Assembly: GCA_023898665.1 (NCBI GenBank)
Contig: CP060233.1
Location: forward strand, 548,368 to 612,367
Reading direction: 5' to 3'
Length of the DNA: 64,000 nucleotides
Source: Candidatus Nomurabacteria bacterium
GTDB taxonomy: Bacteria; Patescibacteriota; Saccharimonadia; Saccharimonadales; HK-STAS-PATE-42
Below are positions 3,699-63,801 of this stretch, in pieces; the first letter of the stretch is position 1, and every line of letters starts with the position of its first letter. The notes under the pieces were generated by a model that worked only from the letters and a program-made list of their open reading frames with translations, was not told the origin of the DNA and did no database searches. Position numbers and translations under genes: made by a program.

Positions 3699-5075
3699 AT
3701 GGCAACACTTGTATCAACAAACCCGGCAAAAAATTATGAGAAGCTTGGCGAAGTAGAGGTCAGTACTGAACAGGAGATTCAGGAAGCTGTAAAAAATGCA
3801 CGAAAAGCCAATCAATCATGGGCGACCCTGCCTGTGAGCGAGAGGTTAGCCTATCTTCAAAGATTTGTGGACGCACTTAAGTCGAGAGCTGATGAAGCAG
3901 CAAAGCTAATAAGCCAAGAAATGGGTAAACCAATTTCCGACGCCAAGGGTGAAGTGCAGACGGCCATTGACGATACTACCTGGATAATTGAGAACGCCGA
4001 ATCGGTGCTGAATCCTGTCACAATTCGCGAAGATGAGAACGGAGTTATCGAACAGCATAATGAGCCATACGGTGTATCTGCAGCAATTGCAGCCTGGAAC
4101 TTTCCGTTGACCAACTTCAAAGAATGCGTCCTACAGGACCTTGCTGCTGGCAACACAGTCGTTTTCAAACACTCGGAAGAAAATCCCCTAGTCGGTAAGC
4201 TTATTGATGAACTCATGCAGACTGCCGAATTTCCCGAAGGTGTATTTACGCAGGTTTATGGTGCTGGTGAAGTTGGCGATATACTTACCGACCAAGATGT
4301 TGATTTCATTAGTTTTATAGGTAGCAGTAAAGTAGGAAGAACTCTCTACAAAAAGGCGGCGGAAAAGTTCATAAACGTACGACTAGAAATGGGCGGCAGC
4401 TCCCCGGGAATAGTATTTGAAGATGTAGATATTGAAACTACAGCAAGACAGGTCGTCAGCGATCGTTTCTTCAACACCGGACAAGTGTGTGATGCGATGA
4501 AGCGGTTACTCGTACAGGAATCAATCTACGATGAGTTTATTTCGGCTGTACAAAAAGAAGTTGAATCTCTTAACTTTGGCAGCCCTGATAAAGAAGATGT
4601 GTCCGTGAGCTGTCTTGTTGCTGAGCGTCAAGTACAGCCTATCCTAGACCAGATTAATAAATCTGTTGAGCAAGGCGCCGAGATTCTTGTTGGCGGAAAG
4701 AAAGCCAAAAACATGGATGGTGCGTACATTGAACCAACGCTCATCACAAACGTAACAGAGAATATGCCAGTTTGGGCTGAAGAGGTGTTTGGACCTGTTT
4801 TGCCAGTCATGACATTTAAAGACGAAGCTGAAGCTATAAAGCTCGCGAATAACACACAATATGGTTTGAGCGGCTACGTACACACTGCCGATAAAGAGCG
4901 AGCCGTGAGAGTGGCAAAAGAAATTAAAGCCGGTCAAATAGCTACCAATGGTGTCCACAATTATTATCCAGAGGTGTGCTTCGGCGGTTATAAAGCTTCC
5001 GGAATCGGTCGCACATGCGGTCCAGCAGGTTTACTCACCGGTACCCAAATCAAGATCATTACAAGACTCAAATAA
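3699..5075 (+). CDS. NAD(P)-dependent aldehyde dehydrogenase family protein
   Basis: ALDH signatures LEMGGSSP (Glu active-site region) and FFNTGQVCDAMKR (catalytic Cys). 458 aa. RBS aggagg upstream. Confidence 0.85.
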   Translation: MATLVSTNPAKNYEKLGEVEVSTEQEIQEAVKNARKANQSWATLPVSERLAYLQRFVDALKSRADEAAKLISQEMGKPISDAKGEVQTAIDDTTWIIENAESVLNPVTIREDENGVIEQHNEPYGVSAAIAAWNFPLTNFKECVLQDLAAGNTVVFKHSEENPLVGKLIDELMQTAEFPEGVFTQVYGAGEVGDILTDQDVDFISFIGSSKVGRTLYKKAAEKFINVRLEMGGSSPGIVFEDVDIETTARQVVSDRFFNTGQVCDAMKRLLVQESIYDEFISAVQKEVESLNFGSPDKEDVSVSCLVAERQVQPILDQINKSVEQGAEILVGGKKAKNMDGAYIEPTLITNVTENMPVWAEEVFGPVLPVMTFKDEAEAIKLANNTQYGLSGYVHTADKERAVRVAKEIKAGQIATNGVHNYYPEVCFGGYKASGIGRTCGPAGLLTGTQIKIITRLK

Positions 5076-5146
5076 TTCAGTTTCAGGCAACGGTCATGAA
5101 ACGCGGTCGCTGTCTTTGGCGTCCAAACACTCTGGGGATTACGGTC

Positions 5147-5246
5147 GGGTTAGAACCTAATTTATCAGAGATAAGGTTGCTAAAATCTATACGAGAATAC
5201 GGTTCGAACCTGATGTAAATATAGGCGAATGGATTCGAACCGGATC
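5147..5246. repeat. Three tRNA T-arm-like fragments (gggttagaaccta, cggttcgaacctga, ggattcgaaccgga)
   Basis: They share orientation and the core GGWTYSRAACC with the T-arm of the adjacent tRNA-Gln (ggattcgaaccta at 5322-5334). None folds into a cloverleaf. Confidence 0.35.
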
Positions 5247-5260
5247 AACAGATCGGAGGC

Positions 5261-5287
5261 AAAACAAAGCCCGGTCATGGAACCGGG
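5261..5287 (-). terminator. Intrinsic terminator downstream of tRNA-Gln(UUG)
   Basis: Hairpin cccggt/accggg at 5270-5287, followed on the minus strand by CTTTGTTTT. Confidence 0.5.
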
Positions 5288-61143: not shown

Positions 61144-61848
61144 ATGGCAGGACATAGCAAGTGGGCGCAGATAAAACGCGCCAAAGGAGTCAACGACGCT
61201 AAACGCGGAGCTTTGTTCACGCGTATCGGAAACCAAATCGCAGTTGCTGCTCGCGCAGGTACTGATCCTCTATTTAATCCATCTCTTGCCGCGGTGATTG
61301 AAAAAGCCAAGGCCGCTAACATGCCAATGAGCAACATTGAGCGAGCGATTAAAAGAGTTTCTGATAAGAATGCTGCTCAACTAGAGGAAGTTTTATACGA
61401 AGGCTACGGACCAGCTGGTGTTGCTGTAATGGTTGAATGCGCAACTGATAATCGTAATAGAACCTATCCAGAAGTTAAACATGCATTCTCTAAGTTTGGT
61501 GGCAGTATTGGAGAGGGCGGAAGCGTTGCTTTCCAGTTTGAAAGAAAAGGTGTAATTGTAGTTAAGGCTAGCGGAGAAGATGCGCTTTTAGAGGTACTAG
61601 AAGCTGGAGCTGAAGATGCTAATGAGGAAGACGACATTATTGTTGCATATACAGACCCGAAAGATCTGCACTCTGTTAAACTTAAGTTAAACGAGGCGGG
61701 CTTGGAGACTGAAAGTGCTGAGCTCAGCTGGGAGCCTAAAAATCATGTTCCTATTGATGAAGAGGCGACGCAGAAATTAGAAAAGATTATTGATGCTCTT
61801 GAAGAGCTCCAGGATGTGGTAAATGTAAGCCATAATGCTGAAGCTTAA
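61144..61848 (+). CDS. yebC: YebC/PmpR-family transcriptional regulator
   Basis: MAGHSKWAQIKRAKGVNDAKRGALFTR... is the canonical YebC N-terminus. Confidence 0.9.
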   Translation: MAGHSKWAQIKRAKGVNDAKRGALFTRIGNQIAVAARAGTDPLFNPSLAAVIEKAKAANMPMSNIERAIKRVSDKNAAQLEEVLYEGYGPAGVAVMVECATDNRNRTYPEVKHAFSKFGGSIGEGGSVAFQFERKGVIVVKASGEDALLEVLEAGAEDANEEDDIIVAYTDPKDLHSVKLKLNEAGLETESAELSWEPKNHVPIDEEATQKLEKIIDALEELQDVVNVSHNAEA

Positions 61849-61865
61849 AATAGATTATTCTTGAG

Positions 61866-62834
61866 CTATAAAGCTTTTAGTTTTACTTTAAGATCAGAGA
61901 GAACCTTTAAAGATAAGTTCGAGAAATCATCGTTAAAGATATTATGTTTCTTATACTTAAGTTTTTTCTCGATATAGTTAAGTACGTCTTTGGTCCCAAG
62001 AACATTTCCGTAACAATTATTAAGCTTAGTTTGAAGTTTTTTTAACCATCTCCTATCATATGTTGCCCATACAAAATCTTCCTCAATAATCTTACCCTTG
62101 CTCCTATTGCATAATAATTTGACTATCTCTGTACGAGCAAAATATGTATGTGTTCTCGGTATGCTCTTTTTTAATGTTTCGTTTCTTGATATTGATAACA
62201 GCCTTAATGCCATAAGCTCTGTAGTACCTTCGACTATGCTAGGGAACTTATTAAAGAATGACCCTTCAACGAAAGACTGTAAGTAGGCATGGCAAAGTTC
62301 ATGGAATATAAGCTCTTCATCAACTCTATAGTATGGGTAGTTAAGCTCAATTGCTTTATTCGCAATATTATAGCTTGCGCCCACATCTCGTAATAAGGGA
62401 GTTAGCCTTGCACCCATAATGATGGGTCTATGGGCCTTAAATCTTACTCGAGGAGATACCCTCAAGTATCCTTCCTCATGAAGCTTTATAGATGCTGACT
62501 TAAAGTCGGCCACCATTGAATCTGTGTCTCCTTTAAAGTGCACCTCTTTAAAATTACCCGAATTAGCAACTTCAACTGTAAAATCTTTGAGCCATTTCCT
62601 TATTTTATATAAAGTTTTAGTATCAATATCCATAAGCAGATCTACCCAGGATCCTGCTTTATTCTTTAATGAATTTATTCCGTAATCCGGCTTTACGTTG
62701 AGTATGTTGTTTAGGCTATTGTTAATCCTGTATATACCATTACTCTTTATCAGAACTCTAGTTAGTTCCTTGGTCTTTGATACATCATCAACTGTTGGCC
62801 TAGAAATTGCGTATGTGTCCCTAAAATCGCTCAT
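61866..62834 (-). CDS. Hypothetical protein with an HExxH motif (possible zinc metallopeptidase)
   Basis: 322 aa. ELIFHELCHAYLQSF is the only recognisable element. Confidence 0.3.
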   Translation of the reverse strand: MSDFRDTYAISRPTVDDVSKTKELTRVLIKSNGIYRINNSLNNILNVKPDYGINSLKNKAGSWVDLLMDIDTKTLYKIRKWLKDFTVEVANSGNFKEVHFKGDTDSMVADFKSASIKLHEEGYLRVSPRVRFKAHRPIIMGARLTPLLRDVGASYNIANKAIELNYPYYRVDEELIFHELCHAYLQSFVEGSFFNKFPSIVEGTTELMALRLLSISRNETLKKSIPRTHTYFARTEIVKLLCNRSKGKIIEEDFVWATYDRRWLKKLQTKLNNCYGNVLGTKDVLNYIEKKLKYKKHNIFNDDFSNLSLKVLSDLKVKLKAL

Positions 62835-62835
62835 T

Positions 62836-63801
62836 TTACATTTGTGTTTTAAGCAAGATTTTCACTTCTTCTAGGCTTTTGCATTCCATGAGTTTAGCCC
62901 GCAGATCACCTGCGCCGTCGAAGTCTCTGATGTAAATTTTAAAGAATCTTTTTAATGGCTCAAACTTTTTTTCTGGATGTTCTTTTAGCTCTTCTTCAAA
63001 AAGTTGGATGTGGTAATTTAACATCTCAATTAACTCTTCTTTTGTTCCAGATCTAGGCTCATCTCTAAAACAGTAGATGTTTTGGAATATTCCACGCCCG
63101 ATCATTACGCCATCTAAGTTATGTTTTTTAGCTAAGCTTAAGCCCTCTGTTTTAGACATAATATCACCGTTGCCGATAATCAAAGTATTAGGAGATATTT
63201 GATCTCTAAGCTTAACTATCTTTGAGAATAATTCATGGTGTGCGGGAACTTTAGACATCTCCTTTTTTGTTCTTGCGTGAATTGTAAGCGCTGCGATATC
63301 TTGGTTTAGTAAGAACCCGAGCCATTCTGGCCACTCCTCTACTTTTGAATAACCTAAACGTGTTTTGACTGAAACAAGAAGACCGCCAGTTTTTGCAGCT
63401 TGAATCATTTTGCCGGCTAACTCTGGGTTACGAATTAATGCAGAGCCGGATTCGTGCTTAGTGGCAGTTTTGACAGGGCAACCCATATTAAGATCGATGC
63501 CGTCAAAGCCAAGTTTTTTAAGGTCTTTAGCCATTTTGGCGACGTTTTCTGGGCTAGAGCTCCAAATTTGGGCAATGAGTGGCTTCTCTACTTTCTTAAA
63601 CTTAAGTCTCCTACCAACTACGTGATTACCTTGTTTGGAGTTCCAACCTTCGGCATTGGTGAATTCTGTAAAAAAGAGATCCGGACGCCCGGCTTTAATC
63701 ACCACTCTTCGAAAGACTGTATCCGTTACAGCCTCCATTGGGGCAAGAACCGTAAACGGCTTTGGGAGCTTATCCCAAACTGTCTTCTTTTTGAATATCA
63801 T
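62836..63801 (-). CDS. dus: tRNA-dihydrouridine synthase
   Basis: LAPMEAVTD, IDLNMGCPVKT (catalytic Cys) and HARTK motifs. Confidence 0.85.
   Translation of the reverse strand: MIFKKKTVWDKLPKPFTVLAPMEAVTDTVFRRVVIKAGRPDLFFTEFTNAEGWNSKQGNHVVGRRLKFKKVEKPLIAQIWSSSPENVAKMAKDLKKLGFDGIDLNMGCPVKTATKHESGSALIRNPELAGKMIQAAKTGGLLVSVKTRLGYSKVEEWPEWLGFLLNQDIAALTIHARTKKEMSKVPAHHELFSKIVKLRDQISPNTLIIGNGDIMSKTEGLSLAKKHNLDGVMIGRGIFQNIYCFRDEPRSGTKEELIEMLNYHIQLFEEELKEHPEKKFEPLKRFFKIYIRDFDGAGDLRAKLMECKSLEEVKILLKTQM

Follow-up and report, generated by a model that had tools for sequence, protein, structure and literature searches.

YTAAGCTTAR, a highly iterated palindrome in a clade of Saccharibacteria

Occurrence of the palindrome in the window

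The window analysed here, a 64-kb stretch of DNA from a Saccharibacterium, carries among others dnaE, pheS, pheT, fusA and uvrC, as well as a comF-like gene, and the octamer TAAGCTTA was found 37 times in it, within genes and in spacers (Table 1). An earlier note had put the number at about 36 and had listed 13 copies of the 10-mer TTAAGCTTAA, all of which were recovered at the starts given; the 14-nt palindrome GGTTAAGCTTAACC and the two copies lying 31 bp apart in the mscL-nusG spacer (29286 and 29317) were likewise found, and only some octamer starts, being those of the 10-mer, had been set one base too low.

The octamer tops the frequency ranking of the window. The measured base composition (A 0.292, T 0.329, G 0.189, C 0.190) is close to that assumed previously (A=T=0.315, G=C=0.185), and the independence model gives 2.1 copies, in agreement with the about 2 predicted. 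Dinucleotide-preserving shuffles (n = 100) gave a mean of 3.61 octamers (sd 1.87, max 9) and of 0.50 copies of TTAAGCTTAA (max 4), while the full motif YTAAGCTTAR, which accounts for 32 of the 37 octamers, averaged 0.9. Variants at the outer positions of the motif are at about background level. Under a maximal-order Markov model the excess was mild (49*41/74 = 27 expected vs 37), but the test is uninformative here, as most occurrences of the 6- and 7-mer sub-words come from the motif itself. The over-representation of TAAGCTTA is confirmed as real, and the motif states were the same in independent assemblies from other samples, indicating that the sequence itself is real. No published description of YTAAGCTTAR iteration was found in the literature.

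A dispersed mini-repeat, one of the origins suggested earlier, was excluded because the flanks, beyond Y at −1 and R at +1 (present on 86–93% of the copies in the window and relatives), are not conserved; moreover, 78% of the window copies lie inside genes.

The four foreign-looking segments (6.8 kb in total) hold no copy, as the earlier note had reported, against about 4.4 expected (P = 0.012, for segments picked post hoc). Since so few copies were expected, the choice was post hoc and only the 1–5 kb region differs in composition (GC 0.45 vs 0.38), motif depletion in these putative islands is weakly suggested.

Table 1. Copies of the palindrome and the comF-like gene in the window
Position	Strand	Feature	Context	Frame	Remarks
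4196–4203		TAAGCTTA	aldehyde dehydrogenase gene	Lys-Leu	flanks G..T, not Y..R
6134–6143		CTAAGCTTAA	OpgC-like acyltransferase gene	Leu-Ser-Leu	
7342–7351		TTAAGCTTAG	gene 6672–8048	Lys-Leu	
10230–10239		TTAAGCTTAA	gene 10064–10558	Lys-Leu	
10356–10365		CTAAGCTTAA	gene 10064–10558	Lys-Leu	
10651–10660		TTAAGCTTAG	intergenic		convergent gene ends on either side
12641–12650		TTAAGCTTAA	intergenic		
14788–14797		TTAAGCTTAG	AcrB-like transporter gene	Leu-Ser-Leu	
15720–15729		TTAAGCTTAG	AcrB-like transporter gene	Lys-Leu	
18280–18289		TTAAGCTTAA	VanY gene, 3' end	Leu-Ser-Leu	
22412–22421		CTAAGCTTAA	heliorhodopsin gene	Leu-Ser-Leu	
29286–29293		TAAGCTTA	intergenic, mscL-nusG spacer		flanks T..C
29316–29325		TTAAGCTTAA	intergenic, mscL-nusG spacer		31 bp from copy at 29286
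30875–30882		TAAGCTTA	straight after TAGAAT		final A is the A of ATG, gene 30882–31625
32611–32620		CTAAGCTTAA	intergenic		start codon at 32627, 7 nt on
34403–34412		TTAAGCTTAA	uvrC	Lys-Leu	
37243–37252		TTAAGCTTAA	TsaB-like gene (PF00814)	Leu-Ser-Leu	same position in L084
38004–38017		GGTTAAGCTTAACC	intergenic, 149 nt upstream of RRM-type RNA-binding protein gene		same 14-mer at orthologous place in L084, L086
38249–38258		TTAAGCTTAA	hisS fragment	Lys-Leu	same position in L086, L091, L088; AAAACTTA in L084
38588–38597		CTAAGCTTAA	hisS fragment	Lys-Leu	kept in L084, L086, L091, L088
39912–39921		TTAAGCTTAA	gene 39595–40068	Leu-Ser-Leu	
43255–43264		TTAAGCTTAA	dnaE, variable 3' end	Lys-Leu	also in L084, L090
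43351–43360		TTAAGCTTAA	dnaE, 3' end		kept in 5/8 genomes of one comparison, 7/11 of another
43462–43471		TTAAGCTTAG	dnaE, 3' end		toggles with TAAACTTA in relatives
46234–46243		CTAAGCTTAA	dnaE		kept in 6/8 genomes of one comparison, 7/11 of another
46931–46940		TTAAGCTTAA	directly downstream of minus-strand TATAAT box, upstream of dnaE		same layout in L084, L086, L091, L088
51480–51487		TAAGCTTA	fusA (EF-G)	Lys-Leu	also in L084
54154–54903	−	gene	comF(C)-like competence gene		
54552–54561		CTAAGCTTAA	comF-like gene	Leu-Ser-Leu	
56332–56341		CTAAGCTTAG	pheT	Leu-Ser-Leu	also in L086
57696–57705		CTAAGCTTAA	pheT	Lys-Leu	
57886–57893		TAAGCTTA	pheT	Lys-Leu	flanks T..T
58126–58135		TTAAGCTTAG	pheS C-terminal ORF	Lys-Leu	
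58601–58610		TTAAGCTTAA	pheS	Leu-Ser-Leu	
59032–59041		TTAAGCTTAG	pheS N-terminal fragment ORF	Lys-Leu	
62020–62029		TTAAGCTTAG	gene 61866–62834	Lys-Leu	
63132–63141		CTAAGCTTAA	dihydrouridine synthase gene	Leu-Ser-Leu	
63206–63215		CTAAGCTTAA	dihydrouridine synthase gene	Lys-Leu	

Genic and intergenic excess

Inside genes (n = 29) the octamer takes the frame xxT-AAG-CTT-Axx in 19 copies, xTA-AGC-TTA in 10 and the stop frame in none, in accordance with the earlier observation that only the two stop-free frames are used. Codon-pair bias had been put forward as a contributor; codon and amino-acid usage, however, account for about 3 to 4 of these 29 copies, the excess persisting after synonymous-codon shuffling with protein and per-gene codon usage kept (500 runs, 3.81 ± 1.87 genic copies, max 11). 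For the 10-mer TTAAGCTTAA the same procedure gave 0.98 genic copies vs the 9 seen. Eight copies are intergenic (at least seven had been counted, which holds as a minimum, the extra one being at 10652), and here too the excess survives shuffling, dinucleotide-shuffled spacers giving 0.81 (max 3). Spacer density is about twice the genic one in the window and 2 to 3.5 times across the window and four motif-rich relatives, and only about 1.4 times in L090. Positions at which the protein sequence allows the motif are filled in 28% of cases in the window vs 2.8% expected, and in 41–57% in five of six motif-rich relatives, where 2–4% is expected. The motif excess acts at the DNA level and not via codon pairs; overall, YTAAGCTTAR in the host and its close relatives is 10 to 90 times above the expectation from chance, codon usage or protein sequence.

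Turnover and loss among related genomes

As a highly iterated palindrome, YTAAGCTTAR is specific to a single clade of Saccharibacteria, a group at the level of a genus or family, in which it is found all along the chromosome at 0.6 to 2.4 copies per kb. The comparison of density with related genomes, proposed in the earlier note, yielded six motif-rich relatives (L084, L086, L245, L091, L088 and L090; DnaE 71–95% identical) with 1.3–2.4 copies per kb. In L244, L089, L087 and L246 the motif is near background, and it is absent from 80 other Saccharibacteria species. One separate Saccharibacteria lineage iterates TTCGAA instead. The motif-poor L244, L089 and L087 are nested in the clade and L246 is basal, adjoining motif-rich L090, in an 11-taxon neighbour-joining tree of a single protein, DnaE, on which gains and losses are not fully polarisable. 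One of the four lineages that lost the motif retains only TAAACTTA/TAAGTTTA fossils, and seven one-step fossils remain at orthologous positions in L246.

The motif sits wherever the sequence tolerates it, that is in spacers, as a stop codon followed by GCTTA, beside −10 boxes and at all remaining positions where it can encode Lys-Leu or Leu/Ile/Val-Ser-Leu. Copies are lost mainly when one of the two central bases changes from G:C to A:T, and they reappear where they had been lost, the same codon toggling repeatedly from TAAACTTA to TAAGCTTA among relatives; density is therefore a balance of mutation against an active force favouring the motif. The site Jaccard index between genomes is 0.11–0.50 (above 0.17 in 14 of 15 pairs) vs 0.05–0.17 for control octamers, a conservation that could in part be convergent, the same few permissive positions being refilled, as co-occupancy odds ratios, 12–18 in close pairs, are about 1–3 in distant ones. 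Motif-rich genomes have 2 to 4 times the density of permissive peptide contexts seen in motif-poor ones (for DnaE, mean 8.3 vs 1.25 in outgroups), and the motif has pulled protein sequences towards Lys-Leu and Leu/Ile/Val-Ser-Leu peptides. The window lineage, where density is lowest among motif-rich genomes and one-step variants outnumber intact copies, is the most decayed of them, and its drive appears weakened or recently lost.

Possible maintenance of the motif

Since three to four related lineages at least have lost the motif, the force favouring it probably depends on a dispensable gene. The comF gene pointed out in the earlier note is present but divergent: TIGR00201 (ComF family) is its best match, full-length with E = 5e-24, below the curated cut-off, and the gene product has a Pribosyltran domain; the gene would be tied to the motif only by way of an uptake or recombination hypothesis. 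No gene for a DNA methyltransferase, a restriction enzyme or a motif receptor was found in the 64-kb window or in related contigs adding up to about 150 kb (at most 24-kb pieces for each relative), so that the motif mechanism is one we infer; a Vsr-type gene was also absent from the window and these pieces.

As a whole, the data are best explained, with a probability of roughly 0.4, by an iterated palindrome resembling HIP1 or an uptake sequence and maintained by a dispensable sequence-specific system. Three of the four causes suggested earlier are still candidates, namely the uptake-type self-recognition signal, a methyltransferase-linked motif and a binding site of an abundant DNA-binding protein. 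Methylation is not needed to account for the dominance of central transitions, these being the only synonymous change in both usable frames, and mutational bias usually runs from G:C to A:T. Campylobacter RAATTY is a methylation-linked self-DNA tag for transformation, a role now proposed for cyanobacterial HIP1 as well. The known uptake sequences DUS and USS are non-palindromic and read by a monomeric pilin, whereas YTAAGCTTAR is palindromic, which counts against an uptake reading, even if the motif can be likened to the Neisseria DNA-uptake tags. It can also be likened to the cyanobacterial palindrome HIP1, itself unexplained; one-nucleotide deviations are, however, central in YTAAGCTTAR and terminal in HIP1, against this parallel. 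For HIP1, a function as an uptake sequence has been suggested. Methylated HIP1 lifts transformation up to more than 100-fold (bioRxiv 2024.09.10.611283). Experiments have demonstrated comEC-dependent natural competence in Saccharibacteria (PMC10633639).

How a system of this HIP1- or uptake-like kind might operate is slightly more tentative still. As the likeliest mechanism, the motif may serve as a self-DNA tag in natural transformation and recombination, where a site-specific protein with two-fold symmetry would recognise it, possibly via methylation of the AAGCTT core; tagged fragments would be preferentially taken up or recombined, and this biased transmission (molecular drive) would let new copies spread in the population. 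The sister lineages that have lost the motif offer a direct route to what writes such tags.

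Abundance, consensus and coding context of the palindrome

The octamer TAAGCTTA was counted 37 times in the window, against 3.6 ± 1.9 copies (maximum 9) in dinucleotide-preserving shuffles, the observed/expected ratio being 10 by shuffles and 18 by composition. No other octamer of the window is as frequent, A/T runs included, and the runner-up palindromic octamer is present in 16 copies. The earlier note had arrived by eye at about 36 copies, a tally in agreement with the exact count, and the 13 copies of the perfect 10-mer TTAAGCTTAA (0.5 in shuffles) were retrieved exactly at the positions it had listed. 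The base composition it had assumed (A and T 0.315, G and C 0.185) also lies near the measured one (A 0.292, T 0.329, G 0.189, C 0.190). Palindrome avoidance, as for an active type II restriction target, was not seen in the window, where AAGCTT is over-represented (74 copies vs 21 expected). The maximal-order Markov comparison called for by the same note gave an expectation of 27 copies vs 37 observed; an excess is retained, yet the test is blunt, as TAAGCTT and AAGCTTA belong for the most part to copies of the motif. In a 64-kb sample the Markov ranking of 8- and 10-mers is moreover dominated by singletons, and the sub-words of the motif inflate the expectation. Over 2-kb bins of the window, the distribution of copies is close to Poisson (mean 1.16, variance 1.43).

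When the 37 copies were aligned, position -1 was occupied by T in 24, C in 11, G in 2 and A in none, and position +1 by A in 24, G in 9, T in 3 and C in 1, with conservation stopping one base either side of the octamer. Since the flanks are conserved at these two positions only, the true unit is the 10-mer YTAAGCTTAR, a perfect palindrome found 32 times in the window (0.9 in shuffles). Variants of TAAGCTTA at the outer six bases are near background, variation being tolerated only at the central two, where TAAGTTTA/TAAACTTA occur at 41 loci and TAAGATTA/TAATCTTA at 21. Overall, the one-base deviations in the window comprise 41 central transitions, 28 central transversions and 42 changes at all outer positions together, with observed/expected ratios of about 6, 2.6 and 1.5, respectively. 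A signature of 5-methylcytosine deamination in the central C-to-T excess was considered and rejected, the transition being the only synonymous change in both usable frames; for the central bases of the motif, the transition-to-transversion ratio (about 2.4:1) is ordinary.

ORFs host 29 of the 37 copies (78%), exclusively in the two stop-free frames, 19 as xxT-AAG-CTT-Axx and 10 as xTA-AGC-TTA. Codon-pair bias had been proposed earlier as a contributor, together with a control on synonymously shuffled genes; this control, run within each gene so that proteins and per-gene codon usage were kept, returned 3.8 ± 1.9 copies (maximum 11 in 500 trials) vs the 29 observed. Synonymous choice would permit the octamer at 105 positions of the window, 29 of which (28%) are filled, vs 3.0 (2.8%) predicted by the codon usage of the genome itself. 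Intergenic DNA, accounting for 13% of the window, holds 8 copies vs 0.8 in shuffles, with a spacer density twice the genic one. The motif excess in the window is thus not due to codon usage. The intergenic copies lie in several registers, namely with a stop codon TAA followed by GCTTA, in gaps between convergent genes, in -35/-10 spacers, straight after -10 boxes and over start codons. Upstream of dnaE, a TATAAT box directly followed by TAAGCTTAAG is conserved in five genomes, and the same arrangement precedes uvrC in two contigs (see the table of coordinates); this either places the motif at the discriminator/transcription-start region or results by chance from its high density in spacers.

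Distribution and turnover among relatives

The DnaE encoded in the window places the host in the Saccharibacteria (TM7, CPR), the closest species representatives having a DnaE 48–63% identical to it. None of 80 Saccharibacteria species genomes showed an excess of TAAGCTTA. A graded series of closer relatives was found by protein search and their contigs were compared.

Contigs of close relatives of the host, with DnaE identity to the window and copies of the octamer
Contig	DnaE identity	Copies	Class
L084	95%	30 in 23.7 kb	motif-rich
L086	85%	42 in 23.7 kb	motif-rich
L091	79%	30 in 13.3 kb	motif-rich
L245	77%	23 in 9.8 kb	motif-rich
L088	73%	46 in 19.9 kb (shuffles 0.9)	motif-rich
L090	71%	24 in 11.3 kb	motif-rich
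L244	86%	2 in 10.2 kb	motif-poor
L089	88%	1 in 10.1 kb	motif-poor
L087	77%	2 in 22 kb	motif-poor
L246	69%	1 in 4.4 kb	motif-poor

The motif-rich relatives carry 1.3–2.4 copies per kb, with Y and R flanks on 86–93% of them, and observed/expected ratios are of about 40 to 90 by base composition (52 by shuffles in L088). In the five of them tested, spacers reach 3 to 5.7 copies per kb and 41–57% of the permissive coding positions are filled, so that the occupancy of permissive sites, window included, spans 28–57% vs 2–4% expected. Densities in the motif-poor relatives are near background, GC content being equal in the two groups. In a neighbour-joining DnaE tree, L244, L089 and L087 are nested among motif-rich genomes and L246 is at the base of the clade, adjoining the motif-rich L090; the trait was therefore lost, or gained, several times among close relatives. 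Purging of the motif by restriction in the motif-poor relatives was rejected, as AAGCTT is not avoided there (7 copies vs 3.2 and 16 vs 7.1 expected).

Other words are iterated elsewhere in the group. A separate, low-GC (36–39%) Saccharibacteria lineage (contigs L057, L039, L033 and L035) iterates TTCGAA/TTTCGAAA, with 16 copies of TTTCGAAA in 13.8 kb vs 0.5 expected and 4–6 copies in contigs of 4–6 kb. First-position variants of TTTCGAAA are also enriched, so the core is TTCGAA, and this lineage suggests that iteration is recurrent in the phylum, with the word differing between lineages. Two Nanosyncoccus-like contigs of about 23.7 kb each, L041 and L051, are strongly enriched in the non-palindromic octamer AAAAAATC/GATTTTTT (30 copies vs 1.8 and 17 vs 1.6 expected, respectively).

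In codon alignments of orthologues, many copies recur at one codon position across several genomes, a dnaE site being common to 7 of 11 genomes and a hisS site to 5 of 6. Intergenic copies are conserved as well, for instance the 14-nt palindrome GGTTAAGCTTAACC upstream of an RRM protein gene and TATAAT-TAAGCTTA-AG upstream of dnaE. The Jaccard index of sites among motif-rich genomes ranges from 0.11 to 0.50 and exceeds 0.17 in 14 of 15 pairs, vs 0.05–0.17 for the control set, made up of every octamer containing two G/C bases; in these comparisons, third codon positions are near saturation. Site conservation is in part inheritance, because co-occupancy odds ratios reach 12–18 in the closest pairs, and in part refilling of a limited number of tolerant positions, because they fall to about 1–3 in distant pairs; part of the conservation above control octamers can thus be convergent refilling. 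Single codons toggle repeatedly between TAAACTTA and TAAGCTTA across the tree, so that G is gained from A again and again despite the mutational bias towards AT.

Besides its one intact TAAGCTTA, the contig of L246 holds seven TAAACTTA/TAAGTTTA variants vs 0.3 expected, which sit where relatives have TAAGCTTA, including the promoter-adjacent site (TATAAT, dnaE upstream); they may be fossils that persisted once the maintaining force was gone, or else reflect a shifted specificity. The window itself is the weakest motif-rich genome (0.58 copies per kb, 28% occupancy), with its one-step variants (41 + 28) outnumbering the intact copies and its sister L084 having twice its density over the same region. 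The motif also shapes proteins: compared with motif-poor genomes, motif-rich ones have a 2 to 4 times higher density of peptide contexts able to encode it. In DnaE, whose permissive contexts and copies cluster in the variable C-terminus, these contexts number 5–10 in motif-rich members of the clade vs 2–6 in motif-poor ones and 0–2 in outgroups.

Integrity of the sequence and search for candidate genes

A sequencing or assembly artefact was rejected, since the same motif states are present in independent assemblies: L001 matches the window at 100% identity, and in L002 and L003, two same-species assemblies at 99.8%, none of the differences falls on a motif site. Some genes in the window are broken, among them the essential hisS and pheS, as well as a TPR gene carrying short deletions with respect to L002 and L003; these breaks reflect either gene decay or local assembly errors. 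A cluster of five SNPs in dnaE looks like a very short recombination patch, the other differences between the window and L002 and L003, over about 8.7 kb, being found only in a cluster at 41.5–41.85 kb. Two motif-free segments adjoin tRNA genes, which fits small integrated islands. The left end of the window differs from the backbone in GC content and encodes a serine recombinase and a DUF4357 protein, and a heliorhodopsin gene carries one motif copy near its 3' end.

Coordinates of the features observed in the window and in related or matching contigs
Feature	Sequence	Position	Strand	Remark
TATAAT-TAAGCTTAAG upstream of dnaE	window	46925-46945	minus	
TATAAT-TAAGCTTAAG upstream of dnaE	L084	9962-9985		
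TATAAT-TAAGCTTAAG upstream of dnaE	L086	9953-9976		
TATAAT-TAAGCTTAAG upstream of dnaE	L091	3048-3071		
TATAAT-TAAGCTTAAG upstream of dnaE	L088	6142-6165		
TATAAT-TAAGCTTAAG upstream of uvrC	L084	23664		
TATAAT-TAAGCTTAAG upstream of uvrC	L088	19500		
Stretch with one-step variants	L246	244-4330		seven variants in 4.4 kb
MiaA with insertion	L088	10653-11906		in-frame, about 165 aa
MiaA with insertion	L091	7046-8269		in-frame, about 165 aa
CRISPR array	L212	7626-8672		period about 72 nt
GC-rich segment	window	1-5100		GC 0.45 vs backbone 0.38
Serine recombinase	window	2335-3606		
Motif-free segment	window	16430-17494		tRNA-Gln(ctg) at 17420-17494
Heliorhodopsin gene	window	22359-23120		PF18761, E = 1.4e-97
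Motif-free segment	window	27177-28062		tRNA-Asn at 27988-28062
hisS	window	38038-39205		split into three ORFs
TPR gene	window	41026-42334		five 1-2 nt deletions, 41600-41848
SNP cluster in dnaE	window	44532-44556		five SNPs within 25 nt vs L002, L003
pheS	window	58107-59102		split into two ORFs

Annotation with Pfam and NCBIfam covered the window ORFs of at least 60 codons (about 79), some of them being assigned instead from gene lists of related contigs. Among these ORFs, no gene was found for a DNA methyltransferase, a restriction enzyme, Vsr or an evident site-specific DNA-binding protein; the lists for the related contigs were likewise devoid of methyltransferases, restriction enzymes, Vsr and receptors, and no DNA receptor specific to the motif was found in the window or in the related pieces. 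A comF-like gene lies within the window, and ComEC, DprA and type IV pili have no gene in the 64 kb. In the contigs L088 and L091, the tRNA isopentenyltransferase MiaA carries an insertion corresponding to DUF559, a domain with a Vsr-like endonuclease fold (match to NF007294, E = 4.6e-27). A link between this insertion and motif density was rejected, as MiaA of the other motif-rich genomes (window, L084, L086 and L245) is without it.

Metagenome and viral collections were scanned with the pattern TTAAGCTTAA-N(40-70)-TTAAGCTTAA, and no dispersed-motif contig of the clade was present among the matches listed, which are tandem repeats and CRISPR arrays. The arrays, in IMG/VR and JGI contigs (L212, as well as L170, L220, L222, L224 and L242), have a 37-nt repeat, GAAGCAATTAAGCTTAAGCCTTATTAGGGGTTGAAAC, containing TTAAGCTTAA, and recall the occurrence of HIP1 inside the Synechocystis CRISPR1 repeat.

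Comparison with known systems and possible origin

The iteration of YTAAGCTTAR can be regarded as secure, and among its closest counterparts is HIP1 (GCGATCGC) of cyanobacteria which, together with alternate HIPs, has been described previously (PMC4390886, Elhai 2015; PMC5861425, Xu, Lawrence & Durand 2018). Both are palindromes, the top octamer of their genome and over-represented tens-fold, occur in genes and spacers at about 0.5 to 2.5 copies per kb with no explanation in codon usage, are conserved between genomes above control octamers, have enriched one-mismatch relatives and are lost in some sublineages, with another palindrome iterated in another lineage of the same phylum. The motif is nonetheless not HIP1 itself, differing in sequence (AT-rich, with a specificity reaching 10 bp), in phylum (Saccharibacteria/CPR vs cyanobacteria) and in the pattern of deviations, which fall here at the two central bases and in HIP1 at the first and last. 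HIP1 has known cognate methyltransferases, whereas none was found here in the window or in the related contig gene lists. For HIP1-type palindromes the observed/expected ratio is roughly 15–300. A periodic spacing at the 10–90 kb scale has been reported for HIP1; across the 64-kb window, counts at the 2-kb scale are close to Poisson. In Synechococcus PCC 7002, methylated HIP1 raises natural transformation up to >100-fold (bioRxiv 2024.09.10.611283), and a role in signalling uptake or recombination is now proposed for HIP1.

Several traits are also shared with the DUS of Neisseriaceae (GCCGTCTGAA, read by the pilin ComP, PMC3868556) and the USS of Pasteurellaceae (AAGTGCGGT core, PMC2817400), which like the motif are words of 9–12 bp present about once per kb and specific at the family level, with different 'dialects' in other lineages. 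They are enriched in spacers and, within genes, found in tolerant frames and poorly conserved protein segments, with proteins bent towards motif-encoding peptides and one-off variants enriched. Natural competence, known in those families, has been demonstrated in other Saccharibacteria, in a comEC-dependent manner (PMC10633639), and the host, too, may be competent. DUS and USS are however asymmetric, with paired inverted copies acting as terminators, whereas the motif is a perfect palindrome, shows no such pairs and was lost from whole sublineages; being a palindrome, it is not a canonical DUS/USS. In Campylobacter jejuni, CtsM and its RAATTY site reportedly provide a methylation-dependent discrimination of self-DNA in transformation. 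RAATTY and methylated HIP1 are short palindromic marks of self-DNA for transformation, as the motif may be, in a competent organism with a small AT-rich genome; RAATTY, a 6-mer, has however not been described as driven or hyper-abundant.

Three readings can be largely set aside. The least probable, practically nil, is that of a dispersed mini-repeat, a MITE/REP element or a mobile-element footprint: many identical copies are indeed dispersed, some in spacers, but nothing is conserved beyond 10 bp, target duplications and terminal repeats are lacking, and most copies are in frame in conserved genes (29 of the 37 window copies being genic), at orthologous codons across genomes, which rules out MITE/REP elements. 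Hardly more credible is an artefact of composition, codon pairs or peptides, with AAG-CTT and TTA-AGC-TTA as favoured codons for Lys-Leu and Leu-Ser-Leu in an AT-rich genome. Every genic copy lies in the two open frames, and the residues involved (Lys, Leu, Ser) are abundant, Leu being encoded most often by TTA and CTT; the artefact is ruled out by synonymous shuffling, by the tenfold higher occupancy than codon usage predicts, by the greater density in spacers than in genes and by the motif-poor sisters, of equal GC content and similar proteins, where it is absent. Operators of a global transcription factor, or a promoter-proximal element with functional intergenic copies and genic ones as spill-over, would fit the spacer density of up to 5.7 per kb, the TATAAT-adjacent copies conserved at dnaE and uvrC, and those in -35/-10 spacers or overlapping start codons. 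This too is improbable, as 78% of the copies are genic, at up to 2 per kb, and half of the synonymous opportunities in genes are filled, which no regulon explains; a classical operator was rejected, since intergenic copies occupy every register with respect to starts, stops and -10 boxes, convergent genes included.

The likenesses with HIP1 and with uptake sequences point rather to a genome-wide, sequence-specific force balanced against mutation, for which a self-DNA tag appears the most likely nature, followed by a neutral repair ratchet and then by nucleoid-protein sites. Biased repair, in which an AAGCTT-specific cytosine methyltransferase and a Vsr-like endonuclease would turn T:G into C:G at near-cognate sites, is a possible but unlikely source. 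Dcm/Vsr repair in Escherichia coli is said to skew the frequencies of CCWGG-related words, and a sequence-specific repair bias can thus raise a methylation-site palindrome genome-wide, but the E. coli effect is well under 2-fold and depletes the T-containing neighbour, vs 10 to 90-fold here with that neighbour enriched. The palindrome with its classical type II core, the recurrent A-to-G regain at TAAACTTA sites against the AT bias, copies placed anywhere tolerated with no position-specific role, an on/off distribution fitting gain and loss of a mobile methyltransferase/repair gene pair, and the Vsr-fold DUF559 in MiaA of two of the densest genomes would all be in accordance with such a by-product, and a 'ratchet' by which copies accumulate through biased repair, without function, has been published for HIP1 (Elhai, PMC4390886). 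On the other side, a ratchet of the VSP type should deplete TAAGTTTA/TAAACTTA, which show a 6-fold excess in the window and one of 7 to 21-fold among the relatives, so that a simple very-short-patch repair signature was rejected; the 10-bp specificity exceeds known methyltransferase or Vsr contexts, the DUF559 insertion is missing in four motif-rich genomes, no methyltransferase was seen in the window or related pieces, and for HIP1 selection was favoured over biased repair (Xu et al., PMC5861425). Selection on chromosome architecture, as Xu et al. envisaged for HIP1, would here maintain binding sites of an abundant dimeric nucleoid-associated protein, which we consider doubtful. Dimeric helix-turn-helix-type proteins typically bind 10-bp palindromes composed of two 5-bp half-sites, and the even spread over the backbone, the conservation above control octamers and the conserved intergenic copies, such as GGTTAAGCTTAACC and the TATAAT-adjacent sites, agree with it. 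Site-specific architectural proteins such as Noc, SlmA, MatP and ParB have tens of sites per genome, whereas 1.3–2.4 copies per kb imply one to two thousand in a genome of about 1 Mb; a vital structural role should not vanish three or four times among close relatives, and no candidate protein was found in the window ORFs.

We therefore think a self-DNA tag the most likely, on account of the competence shown in other Saccharibacteria, the comF-like gene and the effect of methylated HIP1, and assign to it a probability of about 0.35. A symmetric protein would read YTAAGCTTAR when DNA is transformed or recombined, a methylated AAGCTT core possibly being what it recognises, and the maintaining force would hinge on a dispensable gene, as the repeated loss points to. 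In a wider and more tentative form, Saccharibacteria may possess an undescribed self-DNA recognition, with a lineage-specific palindrome, probably methylated, which would be read by the competence or recombination machinery and driven to saturation. Just as tentatively, the tag might be YTAAGCTTAR here and TTCGAA elsewhere, with a gene so easily gained or lost that sisters could switch it on, off or anew.

Hyper-abundant short words are known from few bacterial groups only (USS, DUS, HIP1), and in the literature no description was found of TAAGCTTA as a genomic motif, of iterated palindromes outside cyanobacteria or, for Saccharibacteria, of methylomes or uptake sequences. What causes HIP1 has been under debate for 30 years; the present clade adds an independent second case from a very different kind of organism, an ultra-small CPR bacterium that depends on a host, is probably competent and has a genome of about 1 Mb. 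Close relatives (DnaE 85–95% identical) show either saturating density or complete loss, with one lineage in mid-decay, a contrast that cyanobacteria lack, so that phylogenetic profiling, applied to complete genomes, should lead to the responsible gene or genes. The motif is a sharp binning and taxonomic marker in metagenomes, flags horizontally acquired DNA in genomes of the clade and, as a tag, could raise transformation efficiency in Saccharibacteria genetics. If the reading as self-DNA tag is true, the motif would be the first signal of the uptake or HIP type beyond Proteobacteria and Cyanobacteria, and the natural on/off contrasts would give a direct route to the machinery behind HIP1-like elements.
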